Below are positions 27,423-60,867 of a stretch of 64,000 bases of DNA, in pieces. Position numbers and translations under genes: made by a program. The DNA is from Thermoleophilia bacterium (GTDB lineage: Bacteria; Actinomycetota; Thermoleophilia; Gaiellales; Gaiellaceae). The notes below the pieces were generated by a model. It saw nothing but the letters and a program-made list of their open reading frames with translations, did no database searches and had not been told where the DNA came from. Location of the stretch: assembly GCA_041393535.1 (NCBI GenBank), contig JAWKJY010000010.1:50363-114362 (forward strand), in the 5' to 3' direction. Positions within the stretch are counted from its first letter, which is position 1; every line of letters starts with the position of its first letter.

Positions 27423-27450
27423 CTCAACTCCTCTCGTCCCCGGCCGACTA
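27423..27450 (+). promoter_or_regulatory. sigma-28-type promoter candidate upstream of the first rod gene
   Basis: CTCAAC-N14-GCCGACTA, 37 nt before ATG 27488. Confidence 0.5.
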
Positions 27451-27487
27451 CGCGGGCCGAGGGATCGTCGTCCCCTCTCATCGACCA

Positions 27488-28219
27488 ATGGAACGCGGTC
27501 TGTACATCGCAGCCACGGGGATGCTCGCCGAGCAGGTCCGCCAGGACCAGATCGCGAACGACCTCGCCAACGTCTCGACCACCGGGTACAAGGGCGACCG
27601 GGCGGTGCAGGCGAGCTTCGCCGACCTCCTGCTCGCGAACCGGGAGAACGGCGCGACCGTCGGCCCGATCTCGCTCGGCGCCCAGGTCACGGAGATCGTC
27701 ACCGATCTCGACCAGGGCCCCCTCCGCGAGACCGGCGAGCCGCTCGACGTCGCGCTCGAGGGCGAGGGCTTCCTCGTCGTCCAGACCCCGAACGGCGTCC
27801 GCTACACGCGCGACGGCCAGCTCGAGGTCGACGCGAACGGCCAGCTGCGGACCGCCACCGGCGGGCACCAGGTGCTCGACCAGAACGGCAACCCGATCAC
27901 GCTGTCCTCCACCGAGGGCGTCGCGATCGGGCCCGACGGGGCGATCACCATCGGCACCACCGCCGTCGGGACGCTCGGCGTCGTCTCGCTGACCGGGGCA
28001 CAGAAGGAGGGCGACTCGCTCTTCACGGGCACGGCCGGCGCGCGACCCGAGGCCACGACGCTCCGCCAGGGCTTCCTCGAGGGCTCCGGCGCGGACGCCG
28101 CCCGCTCCATGGTCGACATGATCGTCTCCCTGCGCGCGTACGAAGCGAGCCAGCGCGTGCTGCGGACGATCGACGACACGCTCGGTCGCGCCGTCAACGC
28201 CGGCTCCACCAGTGCGTAA
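27488..28219 (+). CDS. flagellar basal-body rod protein (FlgF/FlgG family)
   Basis: MERGLYIAATGMLAEQVRQDQIANDLANVSTTGYK N-terminus and GFLEGS...MVDMIVSLRAYEA C-terminus. Confidence 0.85.
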   Translation: MERGLYIAATGMLAEQVRQDQIANDLANVSTTGYKGDRAVQASFADLLLANRENGATVGPISLGAQVTEIVTDLDQGPLRETGEPLDVALEGEGFLVVQTPNGVRYTRDGQLEVDANGQLRTATGGHQVLDQNGNPITLSSTEGVAIGPDGAITIGTTAVGTLGVVSLTGAQKEGDSLFTGTAGARPEATTLRQGFLEGSGADAARSMVDMIVSLRAYEASQRVLRTIDDTLGRAVNAGSTSA

Positions 28220-28283
28220 CGGGGCGCGCTCGCCCCTCGCCGCGCGCCACCCGATGGCCGGCGCGAAATCACCCTTTCGGGTC

Positions 28284-28311
28284 CTCAACGGCTCCGGCGC
28301 CCGGTCGATCA
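28284..28311 (+). promoter_or_regulatory. sigma-28-type promoter candidate upstream of flgG
   Basis: CTCAAC-N14-GTCGATCA, 112 nt before ATG 28424. Confidence 0.5.
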
Positions 28312-28423
28312 CCGGACTGGAACCGGGGAGGCACAGGCTGGACTGCATCGAGCAGAGGCCCCCGGGAGCGCCGCCGACTGCGGGCTCCCATCCCCGGAAG
28401 GGACAGGGAAGGACCGACCGCCG

Positions 28424-29140
28424 ATGCTGAACGGACTCTACGCGGCTGCCGCCGGCCTGCAGGCACAGCAGGACCGGCTCGACGCGCTCGCCAACGACGT
28501 GGCCAACGTCAACACGACGGGCTACAAGCGGGCGCGCCTGTCGTTCCACGACCTCGTCTACCAGGGCACGGGCACCGTCCGCCGGGGCGCGGGCGCCGCG
28601 ATCGACCCCGAGGGGCGCTCGTGGCGGCAGGGCGGCCTCCAGGAGACGGGCAATCCCCTCTCGGTCGCGCTCGACGGCCCGGGCTTCTTCCAGGTCCGCC
28701 GCGCCGACGGGACGACCGCGCTGACGCGCGACGGGAGCTTCACGATCGACGCGACCGGCGTGATCGTCACCGGCGGCGGCGAGCGTCTCGAGCCCTCGAT
28801 CACGCTTCCCGCCGGCACCCAGCCGAATGACGTCTCGATCGGGCCCGACGGCGCCGTCACGGTCGCCGGCACGGCCGTCGGGACGATCGAGGTGGTCGAC
28901 GTGCCCGCCCGCGCGGGGCTCGAGGCCGTCGGCGACACGCTCTTCCTCCCCACGACCGCCAGCGGCCAGCCGGTCGCGGCCGCGACGACGATGCGCCAGG
29001 GCTACCTCGAGGGCGCCAACGTCGACATCGGCGAGGCGATGGTGGGCGTGCTCGAGGCGCAGCGCGCGACCGAGATGGTCTCCCGCGCGCTCCGCACGCA
29101 GGACACGCTCCTGGACATCGCCAACGGGATCCGCCGCTGA
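28424..29140 (+). CDS. flgG: flagellar distal rod protein FlgG
   Basis: MLNGLYAAAAGLQAQQDRLDALANDVANVNTTGYK...GYLEGANVDIGEAMVGVLEAQRATEM. Confidence 0.9.
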   Translation: MLNGLYAAAAGLQAQQDRLDALANDVANVNTTGYKRARLSFHDLVYQGTGTVRRGAGAAIDPEGRSWRQGGLQETGNPLSVALDGPGFFQVRRADGTTALTRDGSFTIDATGVIVTGGGERLEPSITLPAGTQPNDVSIGPDGAVTVAGTAVGTIEVVDVPARAGLEAVGDTLFLPTTASGQPVAAATTMRQGYLEGANVDIGEAMVGVLEAQRATEMVSRALRTQDTLLDIANGIRR

Positions 29141-29436
29141 TGCTGCCGCCGATCGACACAGCGCAGCTGCCCGCGGACGTCCGCGCCGCCGGCCCCGACG
29201 CCCGCAAGGCGTACCAGGCCGCGCTCGGGTTCGAGCAGCAGCTCGTCACGAAGCTCGCCGAGCAGCTCGCCGCCACGGCGGCGCCGGAGGAGGACGAGGA
29301 CGCGGATGGCGCCTCGGCGACCACGCAGCAGTTCCGGAGCATGCTCCCGGGCGCGCTCGCCGACGGGATCGCCGCGAACGGCGGGCTCGGCCTCGCCCGC
29401 GAGCTGTACCGCTCGCTGCCGGAGGCCCGGTCGTGA
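29140..29436 (+). CDS. rod-binding protein (FlgJ N-terminal domain only, no hydrolase domain)
   Basis: 98 aa. AALGFEQQLVTKLAEQL...FRSMLPGALADGIAANGGLGLARELYRSL fits the rod-binding domain. TGATG overlap with flgG. Confidence 0.7.
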   Translation: MLPPIDTAQLPADVRAAGPDARKAYQAALGFEQQLVTKLAEQLAATAAPEEDEDADGASATTQQFRSMLPGALADGIAANGGLGLARELYRSLPEARS

Positions 29437-29912
29437 CCGTCCTGCTCGAGCACCTCGACCGGCAGATCCTCTCGTCGCAGCGGCTGCTCCAGAGCGTGCT
29501 CGCCCAGAGCGACGCGATCCGCCGCCAGGACGTCGAGGCCCTGCTCGCCCGCATCGGCGACATCCAGACCGAGATGGCGAACCGCGCCCAGCTCGAGCGC
29601 GAGCGCGACCTCCTGCTGACCGACGCCGCCCGCCGGATGGGCGTGGCGCCCGAGACGCTCGACCTCGAGCAGATCCTCGCCACCGTGCCGCCGTCCGAGG
29701 CCGAGCGGGCCCGCGCCAAGAGTGCCGAGCTCCGCGGCCTGATCACCGAGATCGGGCGCGTGCACGGGCAGAACCGCATCCTGATCCGGCAGGAGCTCCA
29801 GTTCCTCGACCACCTCCTCCGGGTGATGTCCGGCTCGCCGCAGGGCGCCTACTCGCGCCTCGGCTTCGATCCGGCGCCGCCCGTGGTCACGACCGTCGAC
29901 GCGAGGGCCTGA
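29433..29912 (+). CDS. flgN: FlgN-like flagellar export chaperone
   Basis: GTG 29433 (GTGA overlap). 159 aa, helical, sits immediately upstream of flgK as in flgN-flgK-flgL arrangements. Confidence 0.6.
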   Translation: MTVLLEHLDRQILSSQRLLQSVLAQSDAIRRQDVEALLARIGDIQTEMANRAQLERERDLLLTDAARRMGVAPETLDLEQILATVPPSEAERARAKSAELRGLITEIGRVHGQNRILIRQELQFLDHLLRVMSGSPQGAYSRLGFDPAPPVVTTVDARA

Positions 29913-29914
29913 CG

Positions 29915-31267
29915 ATGCCGATCTCGACCTTCATGGGGCTCCAGACGACGCTTCGCGGCATCCTCGCCCAGCAGCGCGCCCTGGACGTCACCTCGCACAA
30001 CATCTCGAACGCGAACACCGTCGGCTACACGCGCCAGGAAGCGCAGATGGCGGCGACGGAGTCGTTCACGTACCCGTCGGTCTCGCGCCCGCCGCAGGCC
30101 GGCCAGCTCGGCACGGGCGTCGACATCACCGGCTACCGCCGGATCCGCGACCAGTTCGCGGACATCCAGTTCCGGGCCCAGACGATGCTCAAGGGCAACT
30201 GGGAGTCCGTGTCGAAGGGCCTCGAGCAGGTCGAGCTCGCGCTCAACGAGCCGTCCGACAACGGCATCAACGCCCTGCTCGGCCGCTACTGGAACGCCTG
30301 GCAGGACGTCGCGAACGCGCCGGAGAACGTCGCCACGCGGCAGGCCCTCGCCCAGGCGGCGTCGAGCCTCGCGCAGGGCTTCCAGAGCGCGCGCAGCCAG
30401 CTCGACACGATCGTCGCGCAGACGGGGCAGAACGTGACGCTCACGCTCGACGACGTGAACGCGCTCGGCGCGCAGATCGCGACCCTGAACGACCAGATCG
30501 CCCGGGCCCGCATCGTCGGCGACCAGCCGAACGACCTGCTCGACAAGCGCGACCAGCTGATCGACCAGCTCGCGACCTTCGGCAACGTGACGCTCACCGT
30601 CGGCGCGAACGACGTGGTCGACGTGGCGGTCGGGGGCGCGGCGCTCGTGACGGGAAACGTCGCGGCCACGATCGCCGAGCCCGACCTGACCTCCCTCACC
30701 TCCGGGAAGCTCGCCGGGCTGATCCAGCTTCGGGACACCACGCTGCCGGGCTACGTCACGCAGCTCGACACGATCGCGTCGACGCTGATCACGGCCACGA
30801 ACGCGCAGCACGCGCTCGGCTTCGACCTGACCGGCGCCGCCGGCGGGGCCTTCTTCACCGGCGCCGACTCGTCGACGATCGCCGTCTCGGCGGCGATCCT
30901 CGCCTCCCCCGCCCTGATCGCGGCCTCGTCGAACGGGCAGCCCGGCAACGCGGCCAACGCGCTCGCGCTCGCCGGCATCCGCCAGACGCCGCTGATCGCC
31001 GGCGCGACGATCGACACCGCCTACTCGCAGCTCGTGACGAAGCTCGGCTCGGACGCCCAGGACGCGCGCCGCCAGGTGGAGAACACGACGATCCTCGCCG
31101 ACGCGATCGAGGGCCGCCGCCAGTCGGTCTCCGGCGTCTCGCTCGACGAGGAGATGGTGAACATCGTGAAGTTCCAGCGCGCCTACCAGGCCTCCTCGCG
31201 GGCCATGAACGCGATGGACGAGATGATCGAGCTCCTGATCACGCGCACCGGGAGGGTCGGCCTGTGA
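29915..31267 (+). CDS. flgK: flagellar hook-associated protein 1
   Basis: MPISTFMGLQTTLRGILAQQRALDVTSHNISNANTVGYTRQ...SLDEEMVNIVKFQRAYQASSR. Confidence 0.9.
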   Translation: MPISTFMGLQTTLRGILAQQRALDVTSHNISNANTVGYTRQEAQMAATESFTYPSVSRPPQAGQLGTGVDITGYRRIRDQFADIQFRAQTMLKGNWESVSKGLEQVELALNEPSDNGINALLGRYWNAWQDVANAPENVATRQALAQAASSLAQGFQSARSQLDTIVAQTGQNVTLTLDDVNALGAQIATLNDQIARARIVGDQPNDLLDKRDQLIDQLATFGNVTLTVGANDVVDVAVGGAALVTGNVAATIAEPDLTSLTSGKLAGLIQLRDTTLPGYVTQLDTIASTLITATNAQHALGFDLTGAAGGAFFTGADSSTIAVSAAILASPALIAASSNGQPGNAANALALAGIRQTPLIAGATIDTAYSQLVTKLGSDAQDARRQVENTTILADAIEGRRQSVSGVSLDEEMVNIVKFQRAYQASSRAMNAMDEMIELLITRTGRVGL

Positions 31268-32157
31268 GCACCCGCATCACCAACTCGATGATGACCCGGA
31301 CGCTGCTCTACGACCTGCAGTCGGTCACGGAGCGGCTCGCCCGCACGCAGGAGAAGCTGTCCTCGGGCAAGGAGCTGACGCGTCCCTCGGACGACCCGTT
31401 CAAGACGAGCCGCGCGCTCCAGTTCCGCAGCGAGCTCTCGATCAATCGCCAGTACCAGCGCAACGCGAAGGAGGCCTCCTCCTGGTCGGACGCGACCGAC
31501 ACGGCGCTCGCGCAGATCACCGAGTTCGGCCGCCGCGCGCGCGACCTGATCGTCCAGGGCGCGAGCGACTCGGTCGGCCAGAACGCCCGCGACTCGATCG
31601 CGCAGGAGCTGACGCAGATCGTCGACTCGATCAAGACGCAGGCGAACACGCAGTACGCGGGCCGCTACGTCTTCTCCGGCTCGGCGACGCTCACGCGCCC
31701 GTACGCGCTCGGCCCGTCCGACGCGTACGCCGGCAACGCCGAGGTCGTCAAGGTCGAGGTCGGGCCCGGCGTCCAGGTCGACCTGAACACGGTCGGGCAG
31801 AGCGTCATCGGCGACGGCGCCGGCGGGCTCCTGCGGACGATCCGAGACGCGATCGCCGACCTGCAGGCGGGCAACGGCGCCGACCTGCAGACCGTCGACC
31901 TGTCGGCGATGGACACGGCGCTCGACACGATCACGAACGCGCGCGCCATCGTCGGCGCCCGCCAGAACCGGCTCGAGAGCGCGGTCAACCGCCTCACCGA
32001 GATCGAGGAGTCGACGTCGAGGCTGCTCTCGGAGACCGAGGACGCCGACATGGCCGAGACCCTCGTCCACTTCTCGATGCAGCAGGCCGTCTACCAGTCG
32101 GCGCTCAAGTCGGGCGCCCAGATCATCCAGCCCTCGCTGATCGACTTCCTCAACTAG
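31264..32157 (+). CDS. flgL: flagellar hook-associated protein 3
   Basis: GTG 31264 (GTGA overlap). STRITNSMM...LSSGKELTRPSDDP...DADMAETLVHFSMQQAVYQSAL. Confidence 0.85.
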   Translation: MSTRITNSMMTRTLLYDLQSVTERLARTQEKLSSGKELTRPSDDPFKTSRALQFRSELSINRQYQRNAKEASSWSDATDTALAQITEFGRRARDLIVQGASDSVGQNARDSIAQELTQIVDSIKTQANTQYAGRYVFSGSATLTRPYALGPSDAYAGNAEVVKVEVGPGVQVDLNTVGQSVIGDGAGGLLRTIRDAIADLQAGNGADLQTVDLSAMDTALDTITNARAIVGARQNRLESAVNRLTEIEESTSRLLSETEDADMAETLVHFSMQQAVYQSALKSGAQIIQPSLIDFLN

Positions 32158-32179
32158 CCCGTTCAAGGAGGAACAGCAC

Positions 32180-32662
32180 ATGCAGATGGAGAGCACGCGC
32201 TTCGGGACGATCGACGTCGAGGACGACGCCGTGCTGTCGTTCCCCGACGGGCTGATCGGCCTGCCCGGGTCGCGGTACGCGCTGCTCGCGCACACGGAGG
32301 CCTCGCCGTTCTGGTGGCTCCACTCGGTCGACCACGCCGACATCGCCGTCCCCGTCACCAAGCCGTGGCTGTTCTTCCGCGACTACGAGGTGAAGGTGTC
32401 GGACGACGACGCGCGGAAGCTCGACCTGGACGAGCCGGGCGCCGCCGAGATCCTGTGCGTCGTCCGCGCGGCCGAGGAGCTCGAGGATTTCACGGTCAAC
32501 CTCGTCGCCCCGATCGTGCTCAACGCGGCGGCGCGCGTCGGCCGCCAGGTGATCAACGAGATCGCGGGCTACGACGTCCGCCAGCCGCTCTTCGCCGAGG
32601 TCGACCTGACCGGCGTCGAGGCCCACGAGCCGGCCGTGCCCGTCGCGGCGCGCGCGGTCTAG
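32180..32662 (+). CDS. fliW: flagellar assembly factor FliW
   Basis: FGTIDVEDDAVLSFPDGLIGLPGSRYALL...FTVNLVAPIVLN. Confidence 0.9.
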   Translation: MQMESTRFGTIDVEDDAVLSFPDGLIGLPGSRYALLAHTEASPFWWLHSVDHADIAVPVTKPWLFFRDYEVKVSDDDARKLDLDEPGAAEILCVVRAAEELEDFTVNLVAPIVLNAAARVGRQVINEIAGYDVRQPLFAEVDLTGVEAHEPAVPVAARAV

Positions 32663-32664
32663 GC

Positions 32665-32916
32665 ATGGGGATGCTGGTCATCACCCGCAAGGCGGGCGAG
32701 CGGATCTGCCTCGGCGACGACGTGACGATCACCGTCCTCGACGTCGTCGGCTCCACCGTCCGCCTCGGCATCGAGGCACCGGCCGAGATCCCCGTCTACC
32801 GGGCCGAGATCTGGGCCGCCGTCAAGGAAGAGAACCGGGCCGCGGCCCAGGCGAGCATCCGGGACCTCCCCGGCGCCAAGGCGCACGGCCGGCCGAAGGC
32901 CAGGGTCGCCCCCTAG
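32665..32916 (+). CDS. csrA: carbon storage regulator CsrA
   Basis: M(GM)LVITRKAGERICLGDDVTITVLDVVGSTVRLGIEAPAEIPVYRAEIW. The start could be 32665 or 32671. Confidence 0.9.
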   Translation: MGMLVITRKAGERICLGDDVTITVLDVVGSTVRLGIEAPAEIPVYRAEIWAAVKEENRAAAQASIRDLPGAKAHGRPKARVAP

Positions 32917-32955
32917 GCACGGACGCAGAGAGAACCATCTCCTAAGGAAGGGACA

Positions 32956-33777
32956 ATGTCGCTCAGGATCCAGAACAACATCGAGGCGTTCAACGCCCAC
33001 CGGCAGCTCGAGGGCACGAGCATGAAGATGTCGAAGTCCATGGAGCGCCTGGCGTCCGGCTTCCGGATCAACCGGGCAGCTGACGACGCGGCCGGACTCG
33101 CCATCTCTGAGAAGCTGCGCGCTCAGATCGGGGGCCTCGCGCAGGCCCAGCGGAACTCCCTCGACGCGGTCTCGCTCGTGCAGACGGCGGAGGGCGCGCT
33201 GCAGGAAGTGCACGCGATGCTCGGGCGCATCCGCGACCTGGCCGTCCAGTACAACAACGGCTCGCTGTCGGCGACCGACAAGGCGGCGATCACGGCCGAG
33301 GTCGCGCAGCTCTGCGCGCAGATCTCCTCGATCGGCGCGGACACGAAGTTCAACGGCATCGCGCTCCTCACCGGCGCCGCCGTGATCACCTTCCAGGTCG
33401 GCCACGAGGACGGCCAGACGCTCGCGACGAACGCGATCTCGCTCTTCGGCTCGGGCGCGACCTTCAAGGTCGACTCGGCGATCTTCACCTGGTCGGGCTC
33501 GACGGTCTCGATCTCGCAGGTCGACACGGCGATCCAGAACGTGTCCCAGGTGCGGGCCGAGTTCGGCGCGATCCAGAACCGGCTCCAGTACACGCTCAAC
33601 TCGCTCTCGACCTACCAGGAGAACCTGATGGCCTCCGAGAGCCGGATCCGCGACGTCGACATGGCGTCGGAGATGGTGCAGTTCACGAAGCTCCAGATCC
33701 TCTCGCAGGCGGGCACGTCGATGCTCTCGCAGGCGAACTCGGCGCCGCAGTCGGTGCTGAGCCTGCTGCAGCGGTAG
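32956..33777 (+). CDS. fliC: flagellin (short, D0/D1-only type), copy 1
   Basis: MSLRIQNNIEAFNAHRQL...LASGFRINRAADDAAGLAISEKLR...MASEMVQFTKLQILSQAGTSMLSQANSAPQSVLSLLQR. Confidence 0.95.
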   Translation: MSLRIQNNIEAFNAHRQLEGTSMKMSKSMERLASGFRINRAADDAAGLAISEKLRAQIGGLAQAQRNSLDAVSLVQTAEGALQEVHAMLGRIRDLAVQYNNGSLSATDKAAITAEVAQLCAQISSIGADTKFNGIALLTGAAVITFQVGHEDGQTLATNAISLFGSGATFKVDSAIFTWSGSTVSISQVDTAIQNVSQVRAEFGAIQNRLQYTLNSLSTYQENLMASESRIRDVDMASEMVQFTKLQILSQAGTSMLSQANSAPQSVLSLLQR

Positions 33778-34646: not shown

Positions 34647-35582
34647 CTAGCCGCGCTCGACGCGGTCGCGCCCGTTCTGCTTGGCGCGGTAGAGCGCGCC
34701 GTCGGCGACCGCGAGGAGGGCGTTCGGCCCGTCCATCGTCTCGCCGTCCCAGGTCGCGATGCCGAGGCTCGCGGTGACCGTCAGGTCGAGCCAGCCCTGG
34801 CTCCCGAGCGCGTCCTCGACCCGGATCGGCGTCGCGCTCAGGGTCGTGCGGATCCGCTCGGCGATCGCCGCCGCCCCGTCGATGTCCGTCTCGGGAAGCA
34901 GCACGAGGAACTCCTCGCCGCCGTAGCGGACGACCACGTCCGACACGCGGCCGACCGTGCGCAGGCGCTGGGCGGCCTCGCGGAGCACCGCATCGCCGGC
35001 GGCGTGGCCGTAGGTGTCGTTGATCTTCTTGAAGTGGTCGAGGTCGACCATGATGCAGGCGAGCGGCCGGTTGTGGCGGCGCGCCAGCGACACGGCCTCG
35101 GCCGCGCGCGAGTAGAGCTGGCTGCGGTTCAGCAGGCCCGTCAGCGCGTCCGTCGAGGCCTCCGCGGCGAGCATGTCGCGGGCAGCCTTCGTGCGCAACG
35201 CCGCGCGCACCCGCGCCGTCAGCTCCTGCGCGTCGAACGGCTTGACGACGTAGTCGACCGCGCCCGCGTCGAGGCCCTGGACGCGCGCCGAGCTGTGCCC
35301 GTGCGCGGTCAGGAAGATCACCGGCGGCGCGTCCGGGACGCTCGTGACGAGCTGCTCGCACACCTCGTACCCGTTCAGGACCGGCATCGAGACGTCGAGC
35401 AGGACGAGGTCGGGCTCGGTCTCGCGCGCCATCCTCAGCGCCTCCCCGCCGTGCGGCGCGGTGACGACCTCGTAGCCCGCCTTGCGGAGCACGAAGGCCA
35501 GGAGGCCGAGGATGTCCGGATCGTCGTCGGCGACGAGGATGCGGGTCTTCGCGCCGGGCTCGACAGCGTGTGCGGTCGCCAT
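34647..35582 (-). CDS. response regulator with GGDEF diguanylate cyclase domain (PleD/WspR-like)
   Basis: REC ILVADDDPDI...LLDVSMP...VDYVVKPF. GGDEF domain DALTGLLNR...DLDHFKKINDTYGHAAGD...RYGGEEFLVLL. Confidence 0.9.
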   Translation of the reverse strand: MATAHAVEPGAKTRILVADDDPDILGLLAFVLRKAGYEVVTAPHGGEALRMARETEPDLVLLDVSMPVLNGYEVCEQLVTSVPDAPPVIFLTAHGHSSARVQGLDAGAVDYVVKPFDAQELTARVRAALRTKAARDMLAAEASTDALTGLLNRSQLYSRAAEAVSLARRHNRPLACIMVDLDHFKKINDTYGHAAGDAVLREAAQRLRTVGRVSDVVVRYGGEEFLVLLPETDIDGAAAIAERIRTTLSATPIRVEDALGSQGWLDLTVTASLGIATWDGETMDGPNALLAVADGALYRAKQNGRDRVERG

Positions 35583-35592: not shown

Positions 35593-35621
35593 TGATCGGC
35601 CGGAGGCGTCGCTCGGTTGAG
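35593..35621 (-). promoter_or_regulatory. sigma-28-type promoter candidate upstream of the REC-GGDEF gene
   Basis: CTCAAC-N15-GCCGATCA on the minus strand. The -10 element ends 10 nt before the ATG. Confidence 0.45.
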
Positions 35622-35677
35622 GGGCAGATGGTGCGAACGGACGCTGGATTCCGGCCCGCGCCTGCCGATCAGTCGGG

Positions 35678-38342: not shown

Positions 38343-38449
38343 GCTCTTCCTCCTTGAAGAACCGACTGGAACCCATGGGGCCAAACCCACCAGCCCCGAC
38401 CACCATCCATGGCGGCCAACCCGGTGATCGCCCACGGCGCCCGCCGCTC

Positions 38450-40012: not shown

Positions 40013-40025
40013 CCGTTCGCTCCCG

Positions 40026-46502: not shown

Positions 46503-46523
46503 GGTCGACCCTCCCCGGCGGGG

Positions 46524-47773: not shown

Positions 47774-47801
47774 TTATCGACCGGCGATCCGCATCGTTGA
47801 G
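47774..47801 (-). promoter_or_regulatory. sigma-28-type promoter candidate upstream of fliO
   Basis: CTCAAC-N14-GTCGATAA. The -10 element ends 3 nt before the first in-frame GTG, so the real start may be GTG 47764 or the transcript may be leaderless. Confidence 0.5.
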
Positions 47802-53241: not shown

Positions 53242-53652
53242 CTACGCGGGACGCAGCGGCGACGGGCCCTGGCGGAGCGTGCGGCGCTCGGCCGGGAGGA
53301 TCTCGGTCACGCGCAGGCCGAACTCCTCGTCGACCGCGACGACCTCGCCGCGCGCCACGGGCGTGCCGTTGACGTAGAGGTCGGCGGGCTCGCCGACCAT
53401 CTTGTCGAGCGTGATGATCGTGCCCGGGGCGATCGCGAGCGCGTCGCGGATCGTCATCGAGGTCCGCCCCATCTCGACGACGAGCTCCACCGGGACGTCC
53501 AGGACGAGCCCGAGGTCGCCGCTCCCGTCGCCCGACGGGCCGGCGCCGCCGAGCTCGGCGAGCGCGACGTCCGCGTCGAGGCCGCCCGCCAGGTCGCCGG
53601 CGATTCCGCCGAGCGCCTGGGCCACCTCTGCATCGAGGGAGAAGTCGTCCAT
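53242..53652 (-). CDS. fliN: flagellar motor switch protein FliN
   Basis: C-terminal SpoA domain (VPVELVVEMGRTSMTIRDALAIAPGTIITLDKMVGEPADLYVNGTPVARGEVVAVDEEFGLRVTEI). Confidence 0.9.
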   Translation of the reverse strand: MDDFSLDAEVAQALGGIAGDLAGGLDADVALAELGGAGPSGDGSGDLGLVLDVPVELVVEMGRTSMTIRDALAIAPGTIITLDKMVGEPADLYVNGTPVARGEVVAVDEEFGLRVTEILPAERRTLRQGPSPLRPA

Positions 53653-53661
53653 CCGTGCCTC

Positions 53662-54123
53662 CTACTGCACCGCGACGTCGGTGAAGTAGACCTCCTTGAC
53701 GTGCTCGTCGGTCTGCTTCTTCACGGCGGTCAGGATCTCCTCCAGCGCCTGCTCGCGCCCCGTCTTCGAGACGAGCTCGTCCGCATCCATGCCGGTCAGG
53801 GTGTCCGTGATGATCGCCCGGACGACGCCCTCCTGCGCCAGGCCGCCGCCCTCGGCGCCATGTCCGCCACCGCCGGCCTCCTCCTCGACGACGAGCGCCA
53901 CGGAGACCTTCCCGTAGTGGCCGTCCGCGAGGTTGACGACGAACTCCTTCTCGAGCGCCATCACGGTGCCCTCGATCTTCGGCTTCGGGGGCGGCGGCGG
54001 CTTCGGGGCGAACTTCATCTTGTAGCCCACGCCTGCGACGACGAGCACGAGGACCGGGACGAGCAGCTTCTTCTTGCTCTTCTTCTTGCCCTCGCCCTCG
54101 GCGCCCTTCTTCTTGTCGCTCAT
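53662..54123 (-). CDS. fliL: flagellar basal-body-associated protein FliL
   Basis: Lys-rich N-terminus, one TM, FVVNLADG...KVSVALVVE... pattern. ATGA overlap with motB. Confidence 0.8.
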   Translation of the reverse strand: MSDKKKGAEGEGKKKSKKKLLVPVLVLVVAGVGYKMKFAPKPPPPPKPKIEGTVMALEKEFVVNLADGHYGKVSVALVVEEEAGGGGHGAEGGGLAQEGVVRAIITDTLTGMDADELVSKTGREQALEEILTAVKKQTDEHVKEVYFTDVAVQ

Positions 54124-55112
54124 GGGGTGACCTCCTGATCGCCCGACGTCGTGCCGCTCGAGGCGGGCGCGACGGCGTCGGGCGAGATCCCGATGGGGTT
54201 CTCGCTGTCGAGGGGTGTGATCGCGGGGACGGCCGCCGGCGGTGCGACGGTGGTCGTCTCCACGGACGTGGTCGTGGTGCCGGCGGCGTCGCCCTCGGTC
54301 GCCGTGCGAACGACGACGATCTCGACGCGACGGTTCTCCGCCCGCCCCTCGGCGGTGTCGTTCGGGGCGATGGGGCGCGTGTCGGCGAAGCCGGCCGCCG
54401 TCATGCGGCCCGGGGTGATGCCGTCCTCGAGGAAGACGGAGAGGACGGTGACGGCGCGGCTCGTCGCCAGCTCCCAGTTGTTCCGGAAGCGGGCCGTCGC
54501 GATCGGCACGTCGTCCGTGTGGCCCTCGATGTGGATCGGGTTCTGGCGCGGGACGCTCTTGACCGCCTTCACGAGGTCGTCCAGCACCGGCCGCGCGGAG
54601 GCGAACAGATCGGCCTCGCCGGTCGCGAAGAGCATGTTGTCCGGGAGGATCCGGATCACGAGCCCGCGCTCGTCGATCGTCGTCTTGACCTTGCCGGCGA
54701 TGCCGCGGTTGGTGACGGACTTGTCGACGGCGTCCTTGATCTTCTGCAGGTCCTGCAGCTCCGCGGCCGTCGCGGCCTGCTCGGCCTCGGTCTTGCCGCC
54801 CGTGCTCTTCTGCTGGTCGGGCATGACGGCGTCCTGCGGCGTGACGGGCTCGACCTTCGCCGTCGACCCGGGGCCGCCCTGGAGGATCGAGTCCTGTCCG
54901 ACGAAGAGCGGCGAGCCGAAGGCGTTCGTCAGCGACAGCTTGAGCGCGTCGAACTTGTCGGCGCTCGTGGTCGACATGGCCCAGAGGATGATGAACAGGG
55001 CCATGAGGAGCGTGATCATGTCCGCGTAGGTCAGCAGCCAGCGCTCGTCGGGATGGAAGCCCTCCCCACCGCGCTTCTTCTTCTTGCCGCCCCCACCGCC
55101 GCCGGCGCTCAT
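54120..55112 (-). CDS. motB: flagellar stator protein MotB (OmpA-like C-terminal domain)
   Basis: WLLTYADMITLLMALFIILW (conserved Asp), IHIEGHTDDVPI...NWELATSRA...NRRVEIVV. Confidence 0.9.
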   Translation of the reverse strand: MSAGGGGGGKKKKRGGEGFHPDERWLLTYADMITLLMALFIILWAMSTTSADKFDALKLSLTNAFGSPLFVGQDSILQGGPGSTAKVEPVTPQDAVMPDQQKSTGGKTEAEQAATAAELQDLQKIKDAVDKSVTNRGIAGKVKTTIDERGLVIRILPDNMLFATGEADLFASARPVLDDLVKAVKSVPRQNPIHIEGHTDDVPIATARFRNNWELATSRAVTVLSVFLEDGITPGRMTAAGFADTRPIAPNDTAEGRAENRRVEIVVVRTATEGDAAGTTTTSVETTTVAPPAAVPAITPLDSENPIGISPDAVAPASSGTTSGDQEVTP

Positions 55113-55891
55113 GCGGCCTCCTTCAGGCCTTCCTCACCGCGGCGGTCGCCCGGTGCGAGGAAGGTCTCGAGCCGCTCGCCCAGCATGCGCGGGTTCTCGC
55201 CGGCCTGGATCGCGAGCACGGCCTCGAGGATCATCTCGCGGTAGTGCACCTCCTCGGCGGAGAAGCTCTTGAGCCGGTTCGCGATCGGGAAGTAGATGAC
55301 GTTCGCGGAGCCGACGCCGTAGAGCGTCGCGAGGAACGCGCCCGCGATCGAGTGGCCGAGCGACGCGGGGTCGCTCAGGTTCTCGAGCACGTGCACGAGC
55401 GAGAGGACGGTGCCGAGGATGCCGATGGTCGGCGCGAAGCCGCCGCCCATCTGGAAGATGTTCGCGTTCGCGCCGTGGCGCTTCGCCATGCCGTCGATCT
55501 CGGCCTCGAGCATGGAGCGGACGAGCTCCGAGTCGGTGCCGTCGACGACGAGCTGCAGCCCCTTCTTCGCGAACGGGTCGTCGATCTGCTTGATGTCCTC
55601 CTCGAGCGCGAGAAGGCCCTCGCGGCGCGCCTTCTCGGCCACCTTGACCATCTGGCCGATCGCGCCGTGGTGATCCAGATCGGTCCCCTTCATCGCGAAG
55701 ATCATCAGCTTGGGGATCGCCTTCGTCGCCTCGATCGGCTGCGAGGCGATCGTCACGCCGAGCGTGCCCCCGAGCACGATCAGGAGCGACGGGATGTTGA
55801 TCAGGCCGGCGGGGTTGCCGCCTTCCATGATCATCCCGACCATGATCCCCATGATCGCGACGACGATGCCGATCCCGGCAGTTGCCTTCAT
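55109..55891 (-). CDS. motA: flagellar stator protein MotA
   Basis: 260 aa, 4 TM. GGGFAPTIGILGTVLSLVHVL...GAFLATLYGVGSANVIYFPIA. Confidence 0.9.
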   Translation of the reverse strand: MKATAGIGIVVAIMGIMVGMIMEGGNPAGLINIPSLLIVLGGTLGVTIASQPIEATKAIPKLMIFAMKGTDLDHHGAIGQMVKVAEKARREGLLALEEDIKQIDDPFAKKGLQLVVDGTDSELVRSMLEAEIDGMAKRHGANANIFQMGGGFAPTIGILGTVLSLVHVLENLSDPASLGHSIAGAFLATLYGVGSANVIYFPIANRLKSFSAEEVHYREMILEAVLAIQAGENPRMLGERLETFLAPGDRRGEEGLKEAA

Positions 55892-56022
55892 CGCAGGGTG
55901 CTCCGCTCCGTCGGTGCCATCAGCCGGCCCTCCATGGCCGCACTGTCGGGGACACGTCTTGCAGCCCGAGTGATCGGCACCCGCCCTCCGGGCTGCTCAC
56001 CCGTCGGAGGGATGACAACGCC

Positions 56023-56160
56023 GGGGAGAAGCTCGCGCGTCTCCCCCACGGGCCCCCTCATCGCGCCAGGCCACGCGCACTCGGGCTCCCGCCCCACGAA
56101 CACGTCGAAGCTCCCCTCCCGGACGACGCGGTCGCCGGACGGCAGCAAGCTGCCCTCCCC
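56023..56160 (+). repeat. intergenic repeat family, copy b (flbD-motA gap)
   Basis: GGGGAGAAGCTCGCGCGTCTCCCCCACGGGCCCCCTCATCGCGCCAGGCCAC...CTCGGGCTCCCGCC...GCAGCAAGCTGCCCTCC. Confidence 0.6.
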
Positions 56161-56259
56161 GGCGAGGTCGCGGGGGAGAAGCGGGGCGTGCTGGCGCCCG
56201 CCGGGGCGGGACCAGGCGGGCGCCGGGTTGGGACGGCGGCGGGACGACACGCGGTGCGG

Positions 56260-56499
56260 CTACTCGGTGCTGCCGTGGATCACGCGCAGCTCGGGCGGCG
56301 GGCCGTACGACGACGCGAGGATGCTCGCGTGCCAGGCGCGGACGAGCTCGGCGATCTCGGCGGGCGTCTCGCGCACGACGTGCTTGACGCCCGTCGTCAG
56401 CGTGACGACCGTGTCCGGCTTCGACTCGACCATGTGCAGCAGCGCCGGGTTCAGCAGGAAGGACGGCTCGCCGTGGCGGAGCGGATGGAGCTCGATCAT
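56260..56499 (-). CDS. flbD: flagellar protein FlbD (SwrD-like)
   Basis: MIELHPLRHGEPSFLLNPALLHMVESKPDTVVTLTTGVKHVVRETPAEI. Confidence 0.8.
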   Translation of the reverse strand: MIELHPLRHGEPSFLLNPALLHMVESKPDTVVTLTTGVKHVVRETPAEIAELVRAWHASILASSYGPPPELRVIHGSTE

Positions 56500-56520
56500 G
56501 GGTGTGCCCTCCGGGAGGCC

Positions 56521-56555
56521 CGCGGCGGCGGGGCGCGAGGCGCCCCGCCGCCGCG
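56521..56555. other. perfect 16-bp GC stem-loop between flgE and flbD
   Basis: CGCGGCGGCGGGGCGC-GAG-GCGCCCCGCCGCCGCG. No T-tract. Confidence 0.5.
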
Positions 56556-56565
56556 GAGGGCCTCG

Positions 56566-57414
56566 CTAGCGGCCGACGTTGGCGAGCTGCTGGAGCATCT
56601 CGTCCGCGGCGGAGATGATCCGGGTGTTGGCCTGGAAGCCGCGCTGGGCGGTGATCATCGACGTGAACTCCTGCGCCAGGTCGACGTTCGACATCTCGAC
56701 GGCGCCGGGGACGAGCACGCCCAGGCCGTTCGTGTCGCCCGGCGTGCCGGCGATCTCGAGGCCGGAGTTGTTCGACACGCGGTAGAGGTTCGCGGCCGCG
56801 CGCTCGAGGCCGGCGGCGTTCGGGAACTTCGCCAGCGTGATGCCCGCGACGACGGTCACGGTGCCCGCGGCGTCGACCGCGCTCACCTTGCCGTCCTGCC
56901 CGACCGTGATCGTCTTCGTCCCGGCCGGCACCTGGATCCGGGTCTCGGTGGTCGTCATCGCGTCGGCGACCGGGTCGTAGGCGTAGCCGACGACGTAGTA
57001 GCCGTCCTGGCTGACGAGGAAGCCGTCGCGGTCGAGCGTGAAGTTGCCCGCGCGCGTGTAGACCGAGTCGGTCGAGAGCGAGCCCGTGCCGTCCAGGGTC
57101 TTCAGGCGGAAGAAGCCGTCGCCCTGGACCGCCATGTCGAGCGTGCCGCCCGTCGACTGCACGGCGCCCGAGCTCATCAGGTTGTCGATGCCCGACAGCG
57201 TCACGCCGAGGCCGATCTGGGCCGGGTTCGTGCCGCCGAGGGCGGTCGAGGAGCCGCTCGCGCCCTTCTGCGTCTGCGAGAGCGCCTCCTTGAAGCTCGT
57301 GCGCTGGGCCTTGAAGCCGAGCGTGTTCACGTTCGCGATGTTGTTCGCGGTGACGTCGAGCATGATCTGGTGGGAGCGCAGGCCGCTGATCGCGGAGAAC
57401 ATGGAGCGCATCAT
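56566..57414 (-). CDS. flgE: flagellar hook protein FlgE (short form)
   Basis: MMRSMFSAISGLRSHQIMLDVTANNIANVNTLGFK...VEMSNVDLAQEFTSMITAQRGFQAN. Confidence 0.9.
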   Translation of the reverse strand: MMRSMFSAISGLRSHQIMLDVTANNIANVNTLGFKAQRTSFKEALSQTQKGASGSSTALGGTNPAQIGLGVTLSGIDNLMSSGAVQSTGGTLDMAVQGDGFFRLKTLDGTGSLSTDSVYTRAGNFTLDRDGFLVSQDGYYVVGYAYDPVADAMTTTETRIQVPAGTKTITVGQDGKVSAVDAAGTVTVVAGITLAKFPNAAGLERAAANLYRVSNNSGLEIAGTPGDTNGLGVLVPGAVEMSNVDLAQEFTSMITAQRGFQANTRIISAADEMLQQLANVGR

Positions 57415-57494
57415 GGTGCGTGCCGTCCTTTCGTTCGGCGGGCCTCCTCGCTCGAGGTCCAGCCCGTGTGCCGTCGTGTCGTGCGCGCCGCCGG

Positions 57495-57902
57495 TCAGGC
57501 GATGACGGCGCTGTCGATGTTCGTGAAGACCTGCTCCTTCATGTGCTCACGGCCGACGGCCGTGATCACCGTGCGATTGGCGACCGAGACGACGAACGCC
57601 GTCCCGTCGACGAGGACGAGCGAGTCGCGCGACCCCTTCGAGGCGGCGCGCTCGACGCCGTCCGCGAGACGGGAGAGCGACGTCTCGTCCAGCTCGATGC
57701 CGCGGCGGCGAAGCCGCTCGAGCGCGTGGCCGGAGAAGCGCAGCTGGCCGGTGTCCTCCAGCTTGCGCGTCAGGACCTCGCCGAACGCCGGCCCCTGGAG
57801 GGGCTGGGCCCGGCGCGCACGCTGCGCCTGGTCGGGCGCCGTCGCCGGCGTGACGCCGGTCAGCGGCCCCGGGGGCAGCGGGCTGTTGAGCGCTCCGCTC
57901 AC
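57495..57902 (-). CDS. conserved flagellar operon protein of unknown function (the type found between flgD and flgE)
   Basis: GTG 57902 (GTGA overlap). C-terminus FSGHALERLRRRGIELDETSLSRLADGVERAASKGSRDSLVLVDGTAFVVSVANRTVITAV...VFTNIDSAVI. Confidence 0.7.
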   Translation of the reverse strand: MSGALNSPLPPGPLTGVTPATAPDQAQRARRAQPLQGPAFGEVLTRKLEDTGQLRFSGHALERLRRRGIELDETSLSRLADGVERAASKGSRDSLVLVDGTAFVVSVANRTVITAVGREHMKEQVFTNIDSAVIA

Positions 57903-58312
57903 TCCACGCTCCGGATCTGGGCCGGCGCCACGTCCACGTCGCCGACGCGGATCGAGATGACACCGTCCTCCAGCGACACCGAGGTGGCGACGCCCGAGGT
58001 GGTCGTGCCGTCGCCGACGTCGTAGGTGACCGTCTTGCCGATCAGGGCCACGCTCTCGGAGACGCGGCTCGACCAGGCCATCGTGCCGAGCTCGCTCGCG
58101 AGGTTCGCGACCTGCTCGACCGTCGAGAACTGCGCCATCGTCCCCATGAACTGCGGATCGGAGGTCGGGTTCATCGGGTCCTGGTTCTTCAGCTGCGCGA
58201 CGAGCATCTTCAGGAAGTCGTCCTTCCCGAGCGTGTCCGTGGCGCGGCTCTGCGTGGTCGGCGTGGGCGTCGTCGTGACGGACGTCGTGCCGTTGACCGT
58301 GCTCATCTCCAC
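57899..58312 (-). CDS. flgD: flagellar hook capping/assembly protein FlgD
   Basis: LGKDDFLKMLVAQLKNQDPMNPTSDPQFMGTMAQFSTVEQ. Confidence 0.85.
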   Translation of the reverse strand: MEMSTVNGTTSVTTTPTPTTQSRATDTLGKDDFLKMLVAQLKNQDPMNPTSDPQFMGTMAQFSTVEQVANLASELGTMAWSSRVSESVALIGKTVTYDVGDGTTTSGVATSVSLEDGVISIRVGDVDVAPAQIRSVE

Positions 58313-58318
58313 CTCCTC

Positions 58319-59760
58319 CTAGGCGAGGACGTTCACCTGGGAGCCGGCCAGGGGCAGGCTGCCGGGATCGATCCGGATGTCGTCGGCGTCGAGCTCGTAC
58401 CCGGCCTCGCCGCGGCCCTGGCCGGGCGTCGGCAGGTTCGGATCGCGGTCGGGCCGCTGGCCGTCGCCCCCGGCGAGGCGGACGTCGAGGCCGTGGACGA
58501 CGAGCCCCTGCGCCTCGAGCGACCGCTTCAGGTCGCCGACGGTCTGCTGCAGGGCCTGGGCGGCCTCGGCGCTGTCGGCCACGACCTCGGCCGAGATCCC
58601 GCCTGCGTGGTACTTCAGCGAGATCCGCACCTGCCCGAGGTCGCCGGGCTCGAGCGTGATCCGGGCCTGCGTCGCCTCCTCGCGCGCCGCCATGCGGACG
58701 ACGAGGCGCGTGACCGCCCCTACCTCGTGCAGCCGCGCATGGAGCCGCAGGTCGGTCGGCTGGCCGGGCGCGCCCTGGAGGACGGCGAGCGTCGGGTCGA
58801 CACCGGGCTGGCTGCCCGGCGCGGCCGGGGCCTGCGGCTGGCTCGCCTGGGCCGCGGGCTGGTGCCGCCCGGCGGCCGCCTCGCGGCGGGCCCGCGCGAC
58901 CTCGGCGATCGTCTGCCCCGGCGCCCGGCGCTTTTGCCCGGGCCGTCCGGGCGACCGTGCCGGTCGTCGTCGCGGCCGATGCGCCGCTCGTGGTGGAGCC
59001 CCGGCCCGGCGCCGCGTCGTCATGGCGCTGGCCGTCGTCGGTCGAGCCGTCCTGCGGCTGCTGCGATGTCCGCGGCGCTGCTCGTTCCTCCGCCGGGGCG
59101 AGGGTCGCCTCGGCAGACGGCTGCACCATGGGCGCCGCGGCCCGGCCGGCGGCGGGTCGACGACCGCGGCCGTGGAGGCCGGGAGCGGCGTCGGCGCGAT
59201 CGGCACGGGGCCGTCCAGCGTCGGATCGACAGGCTGGCCGAACACGGCCTGCGGGTCGGGCGGGCGACCGGCCCGAGCGGAGTCCTCGCCCCGCTCGACG
59301 GCCGGCAGCGCGATCGGTGCCTCGCCGGATGGAGCGGGCGGGGGCGGATCGTCGGGTCGGCGACGTCGGGGGAAGGCCGCGGAGCTGGCCCGCCTCCGCG
59401 GCGGTCGGCGGGCCGCCTCGGCCTGCGGCGGCGTCGGCGCCTCGGGCGCCCGGCCTGGGGCTGGCCCTGATCCGGCGCGGGGACGGGTGCCGTCCACCGG
59501 CTGGTCCGGAGCCGGGACGGGCTGGCCGTCGGCGACCCTGCCGACGGCGACCGCGCCTCGGCGTCCGCCGGGGCCTCCTGCGCGCCTTCCGCTCGTGCGT
59601 CCGGGCGCTGTGGCTCCGCCTGGCTCCTTGCCCTCGCGCCGGCCGCGGCGCGGGCGAGGAGCGGGCTGAAGATGTCCTCGCTGCCCTTCGGTGGGCCGTG
59701 CGAGGCGCCTGGTCGGCGTGCCCCGCGTCGCGCGGGAACCGCCGCCACCGTCTGGGTCAT
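58319..59760 (-). pseudogene. fliK: flagellar hook-length control protein FliK; start frame and stop frame differ (at least one frame change in the Pro/Ala-rich middle)
   Basis: ATG 59760 (MTQTVAAV...EDIFSPLLARAAAG) overlaps a TGA in ATGA fashion. The conserved C-terminus (ARITLEPGDLGQVRISLKYHAGGISAEVVADSAEAAQALQQ) is in another frame. 1442 nt is not a multiple of 3. Confidence 0.65.
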
Positions 59761-60350
59761 GGTGCACCCCGGCGTGGTGGTCGTGGTCTGGCCGCCGTAG
59801 GCGGCGTAGTAGCCGAGCACCTTCCTGCACGTAGGCCGGGTCTCGGCGTACGGCGGGATGCCGCTTCGTACTTCTGCACCGCGCCCGGGCCCGCGCTACG
59901 CGGCGAGCGCGAGCGAGACGTTCCTGCCGAAGCGGTCGAGCTGCGCCTTCAGGTAGCGCGTCCCGCCGTCGATCGACTGCGCGGGGTCGTAGACGTTCGT
60001 GACGCCGAGGCCGCGGCCGTGCCGGGCATCAGCTGCAATCCGGCCGGCGGCGCCGGCCGGGCTCGTCACGGTCGGGTCGAAGCCGACTCCTGGCGGATCA
60101 CCGCGCGGACGAGCGCGATCGACGCCGTACTCGCGGCGGCGGCGTCGATCAGCGGCGCGTACTGCGCCTCGCTGGACGTCCCGGGCAGCGGCGCGACCGT
60201 CGGGACGGGCGGCTGCGCGGCCGTCGTGGCCTGCAGCACCTGCGCGAAGGTCGCCCCGCCGACGGCCTGTCCGGCCTGCGTCGCGGTCTGCGGCGGCGTG
60301 ATCAGCCCGGCGATCTCCTGGATGCGCGCGATCGTCGCCTCGAGGCTCAT
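59757..60350 (-). pseudogene. SLT-domain lytic transglycosylase in the fliJ-fliK slot, heavily disrupted (many frame changes plus an internal stop)
   Basis: ATG 60350 (ATGA overlap with the fliJ stop). SLT signature pieces are scattered over all three frames. The pieces are EYGVD | ALVRAVIRQES | GFDPTVTSPAGAAG | LQLMPGTAA | LGVTNVYDPAQSIDGGTRYLKAQLDRFGRNVSLALAA(stop) | NAGPGAVQKY | GIPPYAETR | KVLGYYAAYGG. Confidence 0.7.
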
Positions 60351-60808
60351 CCGAGCCCTCCCCCGGCGGTGATGCGACGGTGGACGGCGAGCGCGATCTC
60401 CCCGAGCACGCCCTCCTCCCGGCGGAGCGCCTCCTCCTCGTGCTCGCGCAGCCGGCGCTCGCGGAGCCGGTCGAGCACCTGGCGGTCGCGGGAGGCGCCG
60501 ACGAGCGCCTCGCGGCGCCGCTCGACGACCTGCTCCTGCACGGCGACGCCGTGGTGCGCCTGGACCGCCTCGCGCTCGAGCCGCTCGACGAAGGCCTGCT
60601 GCAGCGTCAGGTCGGCGCCGCTCAGCGGACGCGCGACCAGCCGCGTCCCCTGGTCGCGCGCGTCGGCGAGGGACTCGTGCGCCCGCCGCAGCTCGGCCTG
60701 GGTCTGCGCGTGCCGCAGGAGCTCGTGCGCGAGCTCCTCCTTGCGCTGCGTCTCGGCCTGCTCGCGGAGCGAGCGGACGGCCTCGAGGTTGAACGTGAAC
60801 TTGCGCAT
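60347..60808 (-). CDS. fliJ: flagellar export chaperone FliJ
   Basis: Start moved to MRKFTFNLEAVRSLRE. 153-aa coiled-coil, position upstream of fliK. Confidence 0.7.
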   Translation of the reverse strand: MRKFTFNLEAVRSLREQAETQRKEELAHELLRHAQTQAELRRAHESLADARDQGTRLVARPLSGADLTLQQAFVERLEREAVQAHHGVAVQEQVVERRREALVGASRDRQVLDRLRERRLREHEEEALRREEGVLGEIALAVHRRITAGGGLG

Positions 60809-60839
60809 CGTGTGGGGTGGGCCGTGAGGCCCCGTCCGG

Positions 60840-60867
60840 TAATCGACCCCCCACCCCGCCCTTTGAG
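60840..60867 (-). promoter_or_regulatory. sigma-28-type promoter candidate upstream of fliJ
   Basis: CTCAAA-N14-GTCGATTA, 31 nt before the fliJ ATG. Confidence 0.5.

Follow-up and report, generated by a model that had tools for sequence, protein, structure and literature searches.

In the enteric cascade of flagellar gene expression, FlhDC is followed by the sigma-70-dependent genes of class 2 and then by class 3, the class of sigma-28 and FlgM; the enteric sigma-28 targets include genes for methyl-accepting chemotaxis proteins (MCPs), the motor and the braking of motility by cyclic di-GMP (c-di-GMP; e.g., ycgR and pdeH in Escherichia coli). In Bacillus subtilis, whose sigma-D consensus reads TAAA-N15-GCCGATAT, the main fla/che operon is transcribed chiefly through sigma-A, FlgM is present, and the flagellin gene hag possesses a strong sigma-D promoter of its own. 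Here we describe a stretch of 64 kb (referred to below as the window) from a metagenome-assembled genome (MAG) of the Gaiellales, in which a two-block motif, CTCAAN-N14/15-GYCGAYNA, recurs in front of operons for the flagellar export apparatus, rod and hook, within a gene cluster that also encodes a sigma factor of the FliA/WhiG (sigma-28) family.

The closest described systems are found in other actinobacteria. The sigma-28 consensus combines a -35 element TAAA with a -10 element GCCGATAA (PMC8325347), and its actinobacterial form reads xT(C/A)Ax at -35 and GCCGA at -10 (PMC13595943). In Actinoplanes missouriensis, FliA1/FliA2 promoters control all flagellar genes, which are arranged in 11 transcription units (Jang 2016 and Hashiguchi 2020, as summarized in PMC13083903). 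A search of the Actinomycetota with the consensus led Denis et al. (2026) to describe several sites per flagellar cluster, the absence of FlgM, and two sigma clades, one of which is tied to flagellar clusters; diguanylate cyclase, chemotaxis and type IV pilus genes were recurrent predicted targets of WhiG1/WhiG2, and the main text of that study makes no mention of Thermoleophilia or Gaiellales (PMC13595943). In Rubrobacter radiotolerans, WhiG drives the expression of type IV pilus genes and of genes for c-di-GMP enzymes; the same consensus served to identify the promoters, of which 12 were confirmed by start-site mapping (PMC8325347).

We consider it very likely that six sites in the Gaiellales window function as promoters for an RNA polymerase that contains the sigma-28 factor encoded at 48067..48882. 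As in Actinoplanes, early and late flagellar genes are distributed among many transcription units with FliA-type promoters, the flagellar cluster includes the sigma gene, and both organisms are high-GC actinobacteria. Actinoplanes possesses three FliA paralogues as well as TcrA, an upstream activator linked to the development of sporangia, whereas one intact cluster sigma is present here; the promoters of Actinoplanes are experimentally supported, whereas those of the Gaiellales, members of the class Thermoleophilia, are predicted from sequence. With the enteric system the locus shares the sigma family, the -10 box, and the MCP, motor and c-di-GMP brake genes as sigma-28 targets; unlike in enteric bacteria, the export-apparatus, rod and hook operons carry the sigma-28 motif as well, and FlgM was not found. 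The initial annotation of the window had proposed a regulatory hierarchy unlike the enteric model. The difference itself stands, in that early operons carry sites, but it is already in print for the Actinomycetota (PMC13083903; PMC13595943): sigma-28 control of all flagellar operons without FlgM has been published for Actinoplanes and predicted for the phylum, and the concept is unchanged by our data.

Genome and Sequence Searches

The MAG consists of 40 contigs (4.88 Mb, 74.4% GC, 91% complete), and the window corresponds to C10:50363-114362; positions are given in window coordinates unless a contig is named. Genes were called with our own codon log-odds caller, trained on the long open reading frames (ORFs) of this genome, about 85% of which is coding by these calls. 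Gene identities were assigned with Pfam and NCBIfam profiles, and the sigma subfamily was tested with TIGR02479 (cut-off 189.6 bits). The strict motif is CTCAAN-N14/15-GYCGAYNA, i.e., CTCAA followed by 15 or 16 nucleotides (nt) and the -10 box GYCGAYNA. Dinucleotide-preserving shuffles provided the chance expectation for the window, and the reversed pattern served as the control for the genome. The relatives used for comparison are Gaiellales/Thermoleophilia MAGs whose sigma factor is 60-74% identical to that of the window.

Six Sites in the Flagellar Gene Cluster

The strict motif with N14 has exactly five matches in the window, compared with 0.04 in shuffled sequence, and the N15 variant has one (shuffles give 0.00). 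All six sites had been picked out by eye in the initial annotation, and each was recovered exactly where it had been placed; its estimate that such a motif should arise well under once by chance is borne out by the expectation of 0.04, against which six sites are observed. By our gene calls all of them are intergenic, and a co-oriented start codon follows at a distance of 38, 113, 11, 91, 55 and 32 nt, in the order in which the sites are described below. The profile searches returned the downstream genes under the names already given to them (a FlgF-like rod protein, FlgG, REC-GGDEF, FlhA as FHIPEP, FliO and FliJ) and further confirmed two flagellins, FliW, CsrA, two PilZ proteins and FlhF in the window. 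Since the spacers of the six sites are unrelated to one another, these are not copies of a repeat.

The first site (CTCAAC-N14-GCCGACTA, 27423..27450, + strand) precedes the flgF-like rod gene (27488..28219), and some relatives carry a site at the equivalent position. The second (CTCAAC-N14-GTCGATCA, 28284..28311, +) lies before flgG and likely heads an operon of flgG, a rod-binding protein gene, flgN, flgK, flgL, fliW, csrA and flagellin 1 (28424..33777), eight genes in a row between which no gap exceeds 40 nt. The single member of the N15 spacing class (CTCAAC-N15-GCCGATCA, 35593..35621, -) stands in front of the REC-GGDEF gene (34647..35582). Upstream of flhA, the site CTCAAG-N14-GCCGACTA (44241..44268, -) heads a gene run of flhA, flhF, two PilZ genes and two small ORFs (38875..44150), and the site CTCAAC-N14-GTCGATAA (47774..47801, -), divergent from the sigma gene, heads fliO, fliP, fliQ, fliR and flhB (44345..47719). 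The last site (CTCAAA-N14-GTCGATTA, 60840..60867, -), of which contig C20 holds a near-identical copy, precedes fliJ and with it a gene run of fliJ, an SLT-like gene, fliK, flgD, flgE, flbD, motA, motB, fliL and fliN (53242..60808). Together with a site before flgB outside the window, those before fliO-flhB, flhA, flgF, flgG and fliJ-to-flgE uphold the earlier observation that the motif precedes export-apparatus, rod and hook operons. No sigma-70-type promoters were found in the part of the window that we searched for them (27000-39200).

Read as a promoter, the motif would comprise CTCAA as the -35 element, an actinobacterial T(C/A)A form of TAAA, and GYCGAYNA as the -10 element, matching the consensus GCCGATAA, with a spacing of 15 nt, rarely 16, and transcription predicted to start some 7-8 nt after the -10 box. 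The interpretation as a sigma-28-type promoter, which the initial annotation had already advanced, is supported by the match to the consensus, by the dependence on spacing and by the distribution of the motif in the whole genome.

A candidate seventh promoter, CTGGAT-N14-GCCGATCA (35644..35671, +), has a perfect -10 box and two mismatches at -35; only 6 nt separate it from the GTG of a gene for a hydrolase with a CHAP domain by Pfam (35678..36481), so that its geometry would be leaderless.

Genome-Wide Distribution and Predicted Regulon

A scan of the whole genome, suggested in the initial annotation as a check, was strongly positive. The strict motif has 31 matches compared with six for the reversed pattern; 24 of these are intergenic in a genome that is largely coding, and 20 of the 24 have a co-oriented start codon no more than 300 nt away, so that the matches are both biased to intergenic DNA and correctly oriented. 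(By construction, all 24 intergenic sites share the CGA core of the -10 box.) The signal depends on the spacing between CTCAA and the -10 box: 15 nt gives 18 intergenic and two genic matches and 16 nt gives six and five, whereas 12, 13, 14, 17, 18 and 19 nt each give none or one in intergenic DNA. Sites with one mismatch are enriched at 15 nt as well (38 intergenic versus 47 genic), which suggests a regulon of roughly 50 promoters. CTAAA-type sites are absent altogether from this genome.

The distance to the start codon carries a further signal. Of 52 sites, 19 are followed by an independently called start codon at a distance of 5-12 nt from the final base of the -10 box, most often of 8 nt (nine sites), whereas only 4.9% of comparable intergenic positions are expected to be that close (P ~2e-12). 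Leaderless mRNAs are common in actinobacteria, and sigma-28 promoters usually start transcription 7-8 nt downstream of the box. A mode of 8 nt fits leaderless mRNAs whose transcription would begin at that distance, and many genes of the predicted regulon look leaderless.

The roughly 50 promoters would serve almost every flagellar structural operon, whether early or late, and in addition chemotaxis (MCPs, CheW, Hpt), type IV pilus (PilB, PilC, PilD) and c-di-GMP (GGDEF, PilZ) genes. Outside the window, the flgB site heads flgB-flgC-fliE-fliF-fliG-fliH-fliI on contig C20, and the motif precedes fliS and two large glycosyltransferase genes beside fliD. It is also present before cheW, an Hpt gene and five MCP genes (one of them protoglobin-coupled), before pilB, pilC and pilD, before two further GGDEF genes and a PilZ gene, and before several histidine kinase and response regulator genes. 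A Pfam check of ten of these out-of-window targets confirmed PilD, PilC, PilB, the protoglobin-MCP, CheW, FlgB, FliS, GGDEF, PilZ and Hpt.

Three arrangements would couple c-di-GMP braking to the motility program, in a manner reminiscent of ycgR and pdeH under sigma-28 in E. coli: the REC-GGDEF gene has its own site, two PilZ genes belong to the flhA operon, and two HD-GYP genes lie adjacent to the cluster. The latter are tandem REC-HD-GYP genes that, with a PAS histidine kinase gene, are located at the edge of the flagellar cluster (22158-26250, -); no motif site stands before them. An assignment of this stretch (22158..26250, -) to fliF, fliG and fliI was rejected on the basis of these Pfam results, and the true flgB-to-fliI operon is the one on contig C20.

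Conservation in Relatives

The site before flhA is exact in 22 of 31 relatives and occurs with one mismatch at the same place in seven more, although the spacers have diverged. For the fliO site, about 13 relatives have a strict counterpart on the strand opposite to the sigma gene, 140-250 nt upstream of that gene, and the site is exact in five of ten upstream regions anchored to FliO by tblastn; the flgG site recurs ~135-140 nt before flgG in 12 of 18 relatives. All three keep their position while the spacers diverge, the CGA core of the -10 box is retained, and the relatives carry either TAAA or TCAA as the -35 element at equivalent positions.

The upstream region of flhF provides an internal negative control for this comparison. 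A weaker site that the initial annotation had noted there does exist (CTCGTG-N14-GTCGATCG, 41993..42020, -; three mismatches), but it is conserved in none of 20 relatives: the best match upstream of flhF has 3-4 mismatches in all 20, which is the background level. Because of this lack of conservation we dismissed it, and it is probably not a promoter.

In relatives, a further conserved site (CTCAAGTTCTGCGCG..GCCGATCA; loci L086-L097) lies ~680 nt after flgG, probably upstream of flgK to judge from gene order; the window is without a counterpart.

The 31 strict sites of this genome compare with 1-16 in non-flagellated relatives and 1-12 in 24 other genera of its family. In none of the latter (G001-G024) did we find a match to FlgG, whereas several other families of the order do have one; flagella therefore appear to be patchy in the family, through loss or horizontal gain. 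As a marker of flagella in 41 related genomes, the motif count was rejected: it gives no more than a moderate contrast, since a WhiG2-type sigma factor and some sites are also present in relatives without flagella.

The Sigma Factor and Alternative Explanations

The gene at 48067..48882 (+ strand) had been assigned to the fliA family, and its product, which contains sigma-70 regions 2, 3 and 4, passes the NCBIfam cut-off for FliA/WhiG (197.5 versus 189.6 bits). Among proteins of solved structure, the sigma chain of PDB 6PFV/6PFJ and several FliA structures rank as its best relatives. The gene belongs to the flagellar cluster and is divergent from fliO-fliP-fliQ-fliR-flhB, an arrangement that the relatives share; by this context it is WhiG1-like and falls into the class of flagellar-cluster sigma factors. 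We infer that it is the likely reader of the motif.

Two proteins known to hold back sigma-28 factors elsewhere were sought. The FlgM profile PF04316 matches nothing in the genome, while control genomes respond, and the RsiG signature E-x3-S-x2-R-x3-Q-x3-D is absent from our gene calls, which are rough and stem from a genome that is 91% complete. Since FlgM was not found, sigma-28 would act as a general switch of the motility program rather than as a late-gene factor. In relatives (L002-L045), a conserved GCCGATAC box without a recognizable -35 element precedes the sigma gene by ~60-120 nt on the + strand and may reflect auto-activation of that gene; the upstream region of the window sigma gene (47802-48066) lacks it.

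The genome holds one other sigma-28 gene, a WhiG2-type paralogue at C21:22100-22880, and some or all of the sites might be read by its product instead of by the sigma factor of the flagellar cluster. This we regard as improbable. The six sites reside in the very cluster that holds the intact sigma gene, whereas the C21 copy shows at least three reading-frame changes within ~300 nt and an altered end of region 4.2, which makes it a pseudogene or an assembly error; the number of strict sites in this genome also exceeds that of non-flagellated relatives and of the other genera of the family. What speaks for the paralogue is its N-terminal half, 62% identical to the 6PFV sigma chain compared with 40% for the window sigma, and its distribution: among 41 genomes of the order, a copy scoring ~290 bits is found in nearly all, whereas a copy scoring ~200 bits occurs only beside flagellar genes, two score classes that seem to mirror the WhiG2/WhiG1 split (PMC13595943). 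Similar promoters are reportedly recognized by WhiG1 and WhiG2 (PMC13595943), the WhiG factor of Rubrobacter has pilus and diguanylate cyclase genes among its targets (PMC8325347), and a modest enrichment of the motif persists in non-flagellated relatives.

Less probable still is that the motif is the site of a transcription factor or of another type of sigma factor, e.g., one of the extracytoplasmic function (ECF) group, and resembles sigma-28 promoters by coincidence. A two-block motif with a strict 15-nt spacing, fixed 7-8 nt before leaderless start codons, argues against such a site, as do a -10 box that matches GCCGATAA and targets that represent classical sigma-28 functions. The assignment to sigma-28 does draw on sequence likeness, and the -35 element reads TCAA and not the textbook TAAA; T(C/A)A is, however, the published actinobacterial form (PMC13595943), and the relatives use TAAA at the same positions. 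Chance matches or functionless repeat copies can practically be dismissed, GC-rich as the genome is and common as GCCGA-like strings are in it, because the excess over shuffled sequence, the spacing control, the bias to intergenic DNA and correct orientation, and the positions kept in relatives while the spacers change already contradict them.

Several points nevertheless weigh against the reading of the sites as promoters of the flagellar-cluster sigma. Non-flagellated relatives show an about threefold enrichment of the motif over the reversed control, so that it is not exclusive to flagellar genomes. A second paralogue exists, the frame changes of which could be assembly errors, and sequence cannot assign individual sites to one paralogue or the other, above all those before pilus and c-di-GMP genes. 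Start sites and sigma dependence are inferred, and the extents of the operons are deduced from small gene gaps only. Finally, our home-made gene calls miss some genes, and the labels intergenic and genic therefore carry some error.

On balance, sigma-28-type promoters read by the flagellar-cluster sigma remain the preferred explanation, and on this basis the locus can be set beside the actinobacterial systems described above. It shares with the set of Denis et al. (2026) the consensus, the sites in the flagellar cluster, the target classes, the lack of a detectable FlgM and the two sigma types; it differs in that flagellar, chemotaxis, pilus and c-di-GMP targets are united here in a single predicted regulon and in that the WhiG2-type copy of this genome looks broken (PMC13595943). 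As in Rubrobacter, the actinobacterial sigma-28 consensus precedes type IV pilus and c-di-GMP genes; Rubrobacter possesses no flagella and its WhiG is held by RsiG together with c-di-GMP, whereas the RsiG signature was not found in our gene calls (PMC8325347).

Flagellin and MCP Genes

The initial annotation had found no motif upstream of either flagellin gene or the MCP genes. For the window this holds, as no site with two or fewer mismatches precedes them; elsewhere in the genome, five MCP genes carry the motif, three of them on the same contig just beyond the end of the window. A one-mismatch site at C10:116350, ~2 kb past the window end, may feed an Hpt-CheW-MCP-MCP run that reaches into the window and includes two in-window MCP genes. 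The notion that flagellins and MCPs stand outside sigma-28 control is not supported, in view of these sites, the composition of the flgG operon and the flagellin sites of the relatives.

Flagellin 1 (32956..33777, +) begins 40 nt after csrA and has no promoter match of its own. A scan of the 40-nt gap between the two genes found no terminator-like site, and flagellin 1 is probably co-transcribed from the promoter at 28284. In the relatives, 29 of 31 flagellin genes are preceded, 90-130 nt upstream, by a sigma-28 site of the near-canonical form CTAAAG-N14-GYCGATTA; 25 of the 31 have the canonical -35 element CTAAA, and the -10 element is mostly GYCGATTA. Flagellin thus is the most canonical sigma-28 target in the lineage.

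A degenerate flagellin site is confined to flagellin 2 of this genome (37527..38342), whose upstream gap amounts to 530 nt compared with ~140 nt in relatives. A -10-like box, GGCGATCA (38425..38432, -), is present there between the gene and a hairpin farther upstream, with GTGGA at the -35 position; relative to the conserved GGA motifs of the leader, it is placed like the canonical box of the relatives, one of which (L039) carries CTTAAG-N14-GGCGATCA at this position. The relative locus of highest GC content (L038, 76%) has CTCAA before flagellin, and this, along with the lack of CTAAA in our genome, indicates that GC drift may explain part of the loss of TAAA at flagellin. A second box, GCCGAAAA, ~255 nt before flagellin 2, was rejected as a promoter; it has three mismatches in total, and a 16-bp hairpin lies between it and the gene.

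The long gap holds two further features. At 38527-38610 (-), a perfect 16-bp hairpin (GGCGAAAACCUCCUG/CAGGGGGUUUUCGCC) is followed by UUUCC, and upstream of it are a GGA-rich stretch (CAGGAGCA, CAGGGGACA, UAGGGGACGA) and the GCCGAAAA box. The hairpin might represent a terminator for the flhA operon or, alternatively, a small RNA that binds CsrA; it has no match in Rfam, whose scan of the window returned one tRNA and nothing else. The second feature is a 26-nt element, GCGCAGGATCCCTCGAnCGnGCnGTG, at 38450-38475 (-), which recurs at 4903-4928 (-) with 22 of 26 positions identical. In both places exactly 17 nt separate it from a sigma-28-like -10 box on its downstream side: GGCGATCA at flagellin 2 and GCCGATGC before gene 3932..4849, the neighbor of an ECF-ZAS sigma gene. 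As the signal of a wider regulon it was rejected, the composite of element and -10-like box at 17 nt being present only twice in the genome. On a reading that we consider rather unlikely, the combination of GGCGATCA and the 26-nt element at flagellin 2 would suggest a rewired late promoter that needs an activator or a second sigma factor.

GGA motifs occur in both flagellin leaders, at the ribosome-binding site (AAGGAGGAA, TAAGGAAGGGA) as well as farther upstream, and fliW and csrA directly precede flagellin 1; this placement and the leader motifs are nearly invariant in the relatives. In B. subtilis, the genes follow one another in the order flgK, flgL, fliW, csrA and flagellin, and the CsrA sites in the flagellin leader overlap the ribosome-binding site. 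The Gaiellales locus resembles this system in its TAAA-type-N15 layout, in the order flgK-flgL-fliW-csrA-flagellin and in the GGA motifs at the flagellin ribosome-binding site; unlike hag, flagellin 1 is without a promoter match of its own. By analogy with B. subtilis, late control of flagellin would probably be post-transcriptional, with the FliW-CsrA pair as a translational checkpoint. It is conceivable, if rather unlikely, that in Gaiellales lacking FlgM a single sigma-28 sets the order and level of expression through promoter affinity classes, with FliW-CsrA as the late translational checkpoint; the idea derives from relatives that keep CTAAAG at flagellin (25 of 31 genes) and CTCAAG at flhA and fliO, whereas our genome of 74% GC has lost the TAAA class and flagellin 2 would depend on the rewired promoter considered above.

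Further Features of the Assembly

A stretch of 3.9 kb is present twice, at C20:1-3922 and C10:109355-113262 (window 58993-62900), with 92.8% identity; it covers the end of fliK, the SLT-like gene, fliJ and its promoter, and an MCP gene, and points either to a duplication or to the presence of a second strain in the bin. Apart from this stretch, contig C20 contains flgB-to-fliI, fliS, fliD, the glycosyltransferase genes and a che operon, along with six motif sites. Between fliJ and fliK, the gene for the SLT-like lytic transglycosylase (59896-60350, -) is split across two reading frames, and both fliK (about 58700-59890) and the stretch 17122-19860 were missed by our gene caller; assembly indel errors or low-complexity coding are possible causes.

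Implications for Motility in the Gaiellales

The predicted promoters provide a first, sequence-derived map of a motility regulon for the Gaiellales, a lineage that is abundant in soil and represented almost exclusively by genomes of uncultured members. They extend the actinobacterial model, in which sigma-28 stands before all flagellar operons and FlgM is lacking, to the class Thermoleophilia. The motif and the 8-nt leaderless geometry are usable to correct start codons and to predict operon heads in MAGs of the Gaiellales. In the organism studied here, one sigma-28 signal appears to link flagella, chemotaxis, type IV pili and c-di-GMP signaling.

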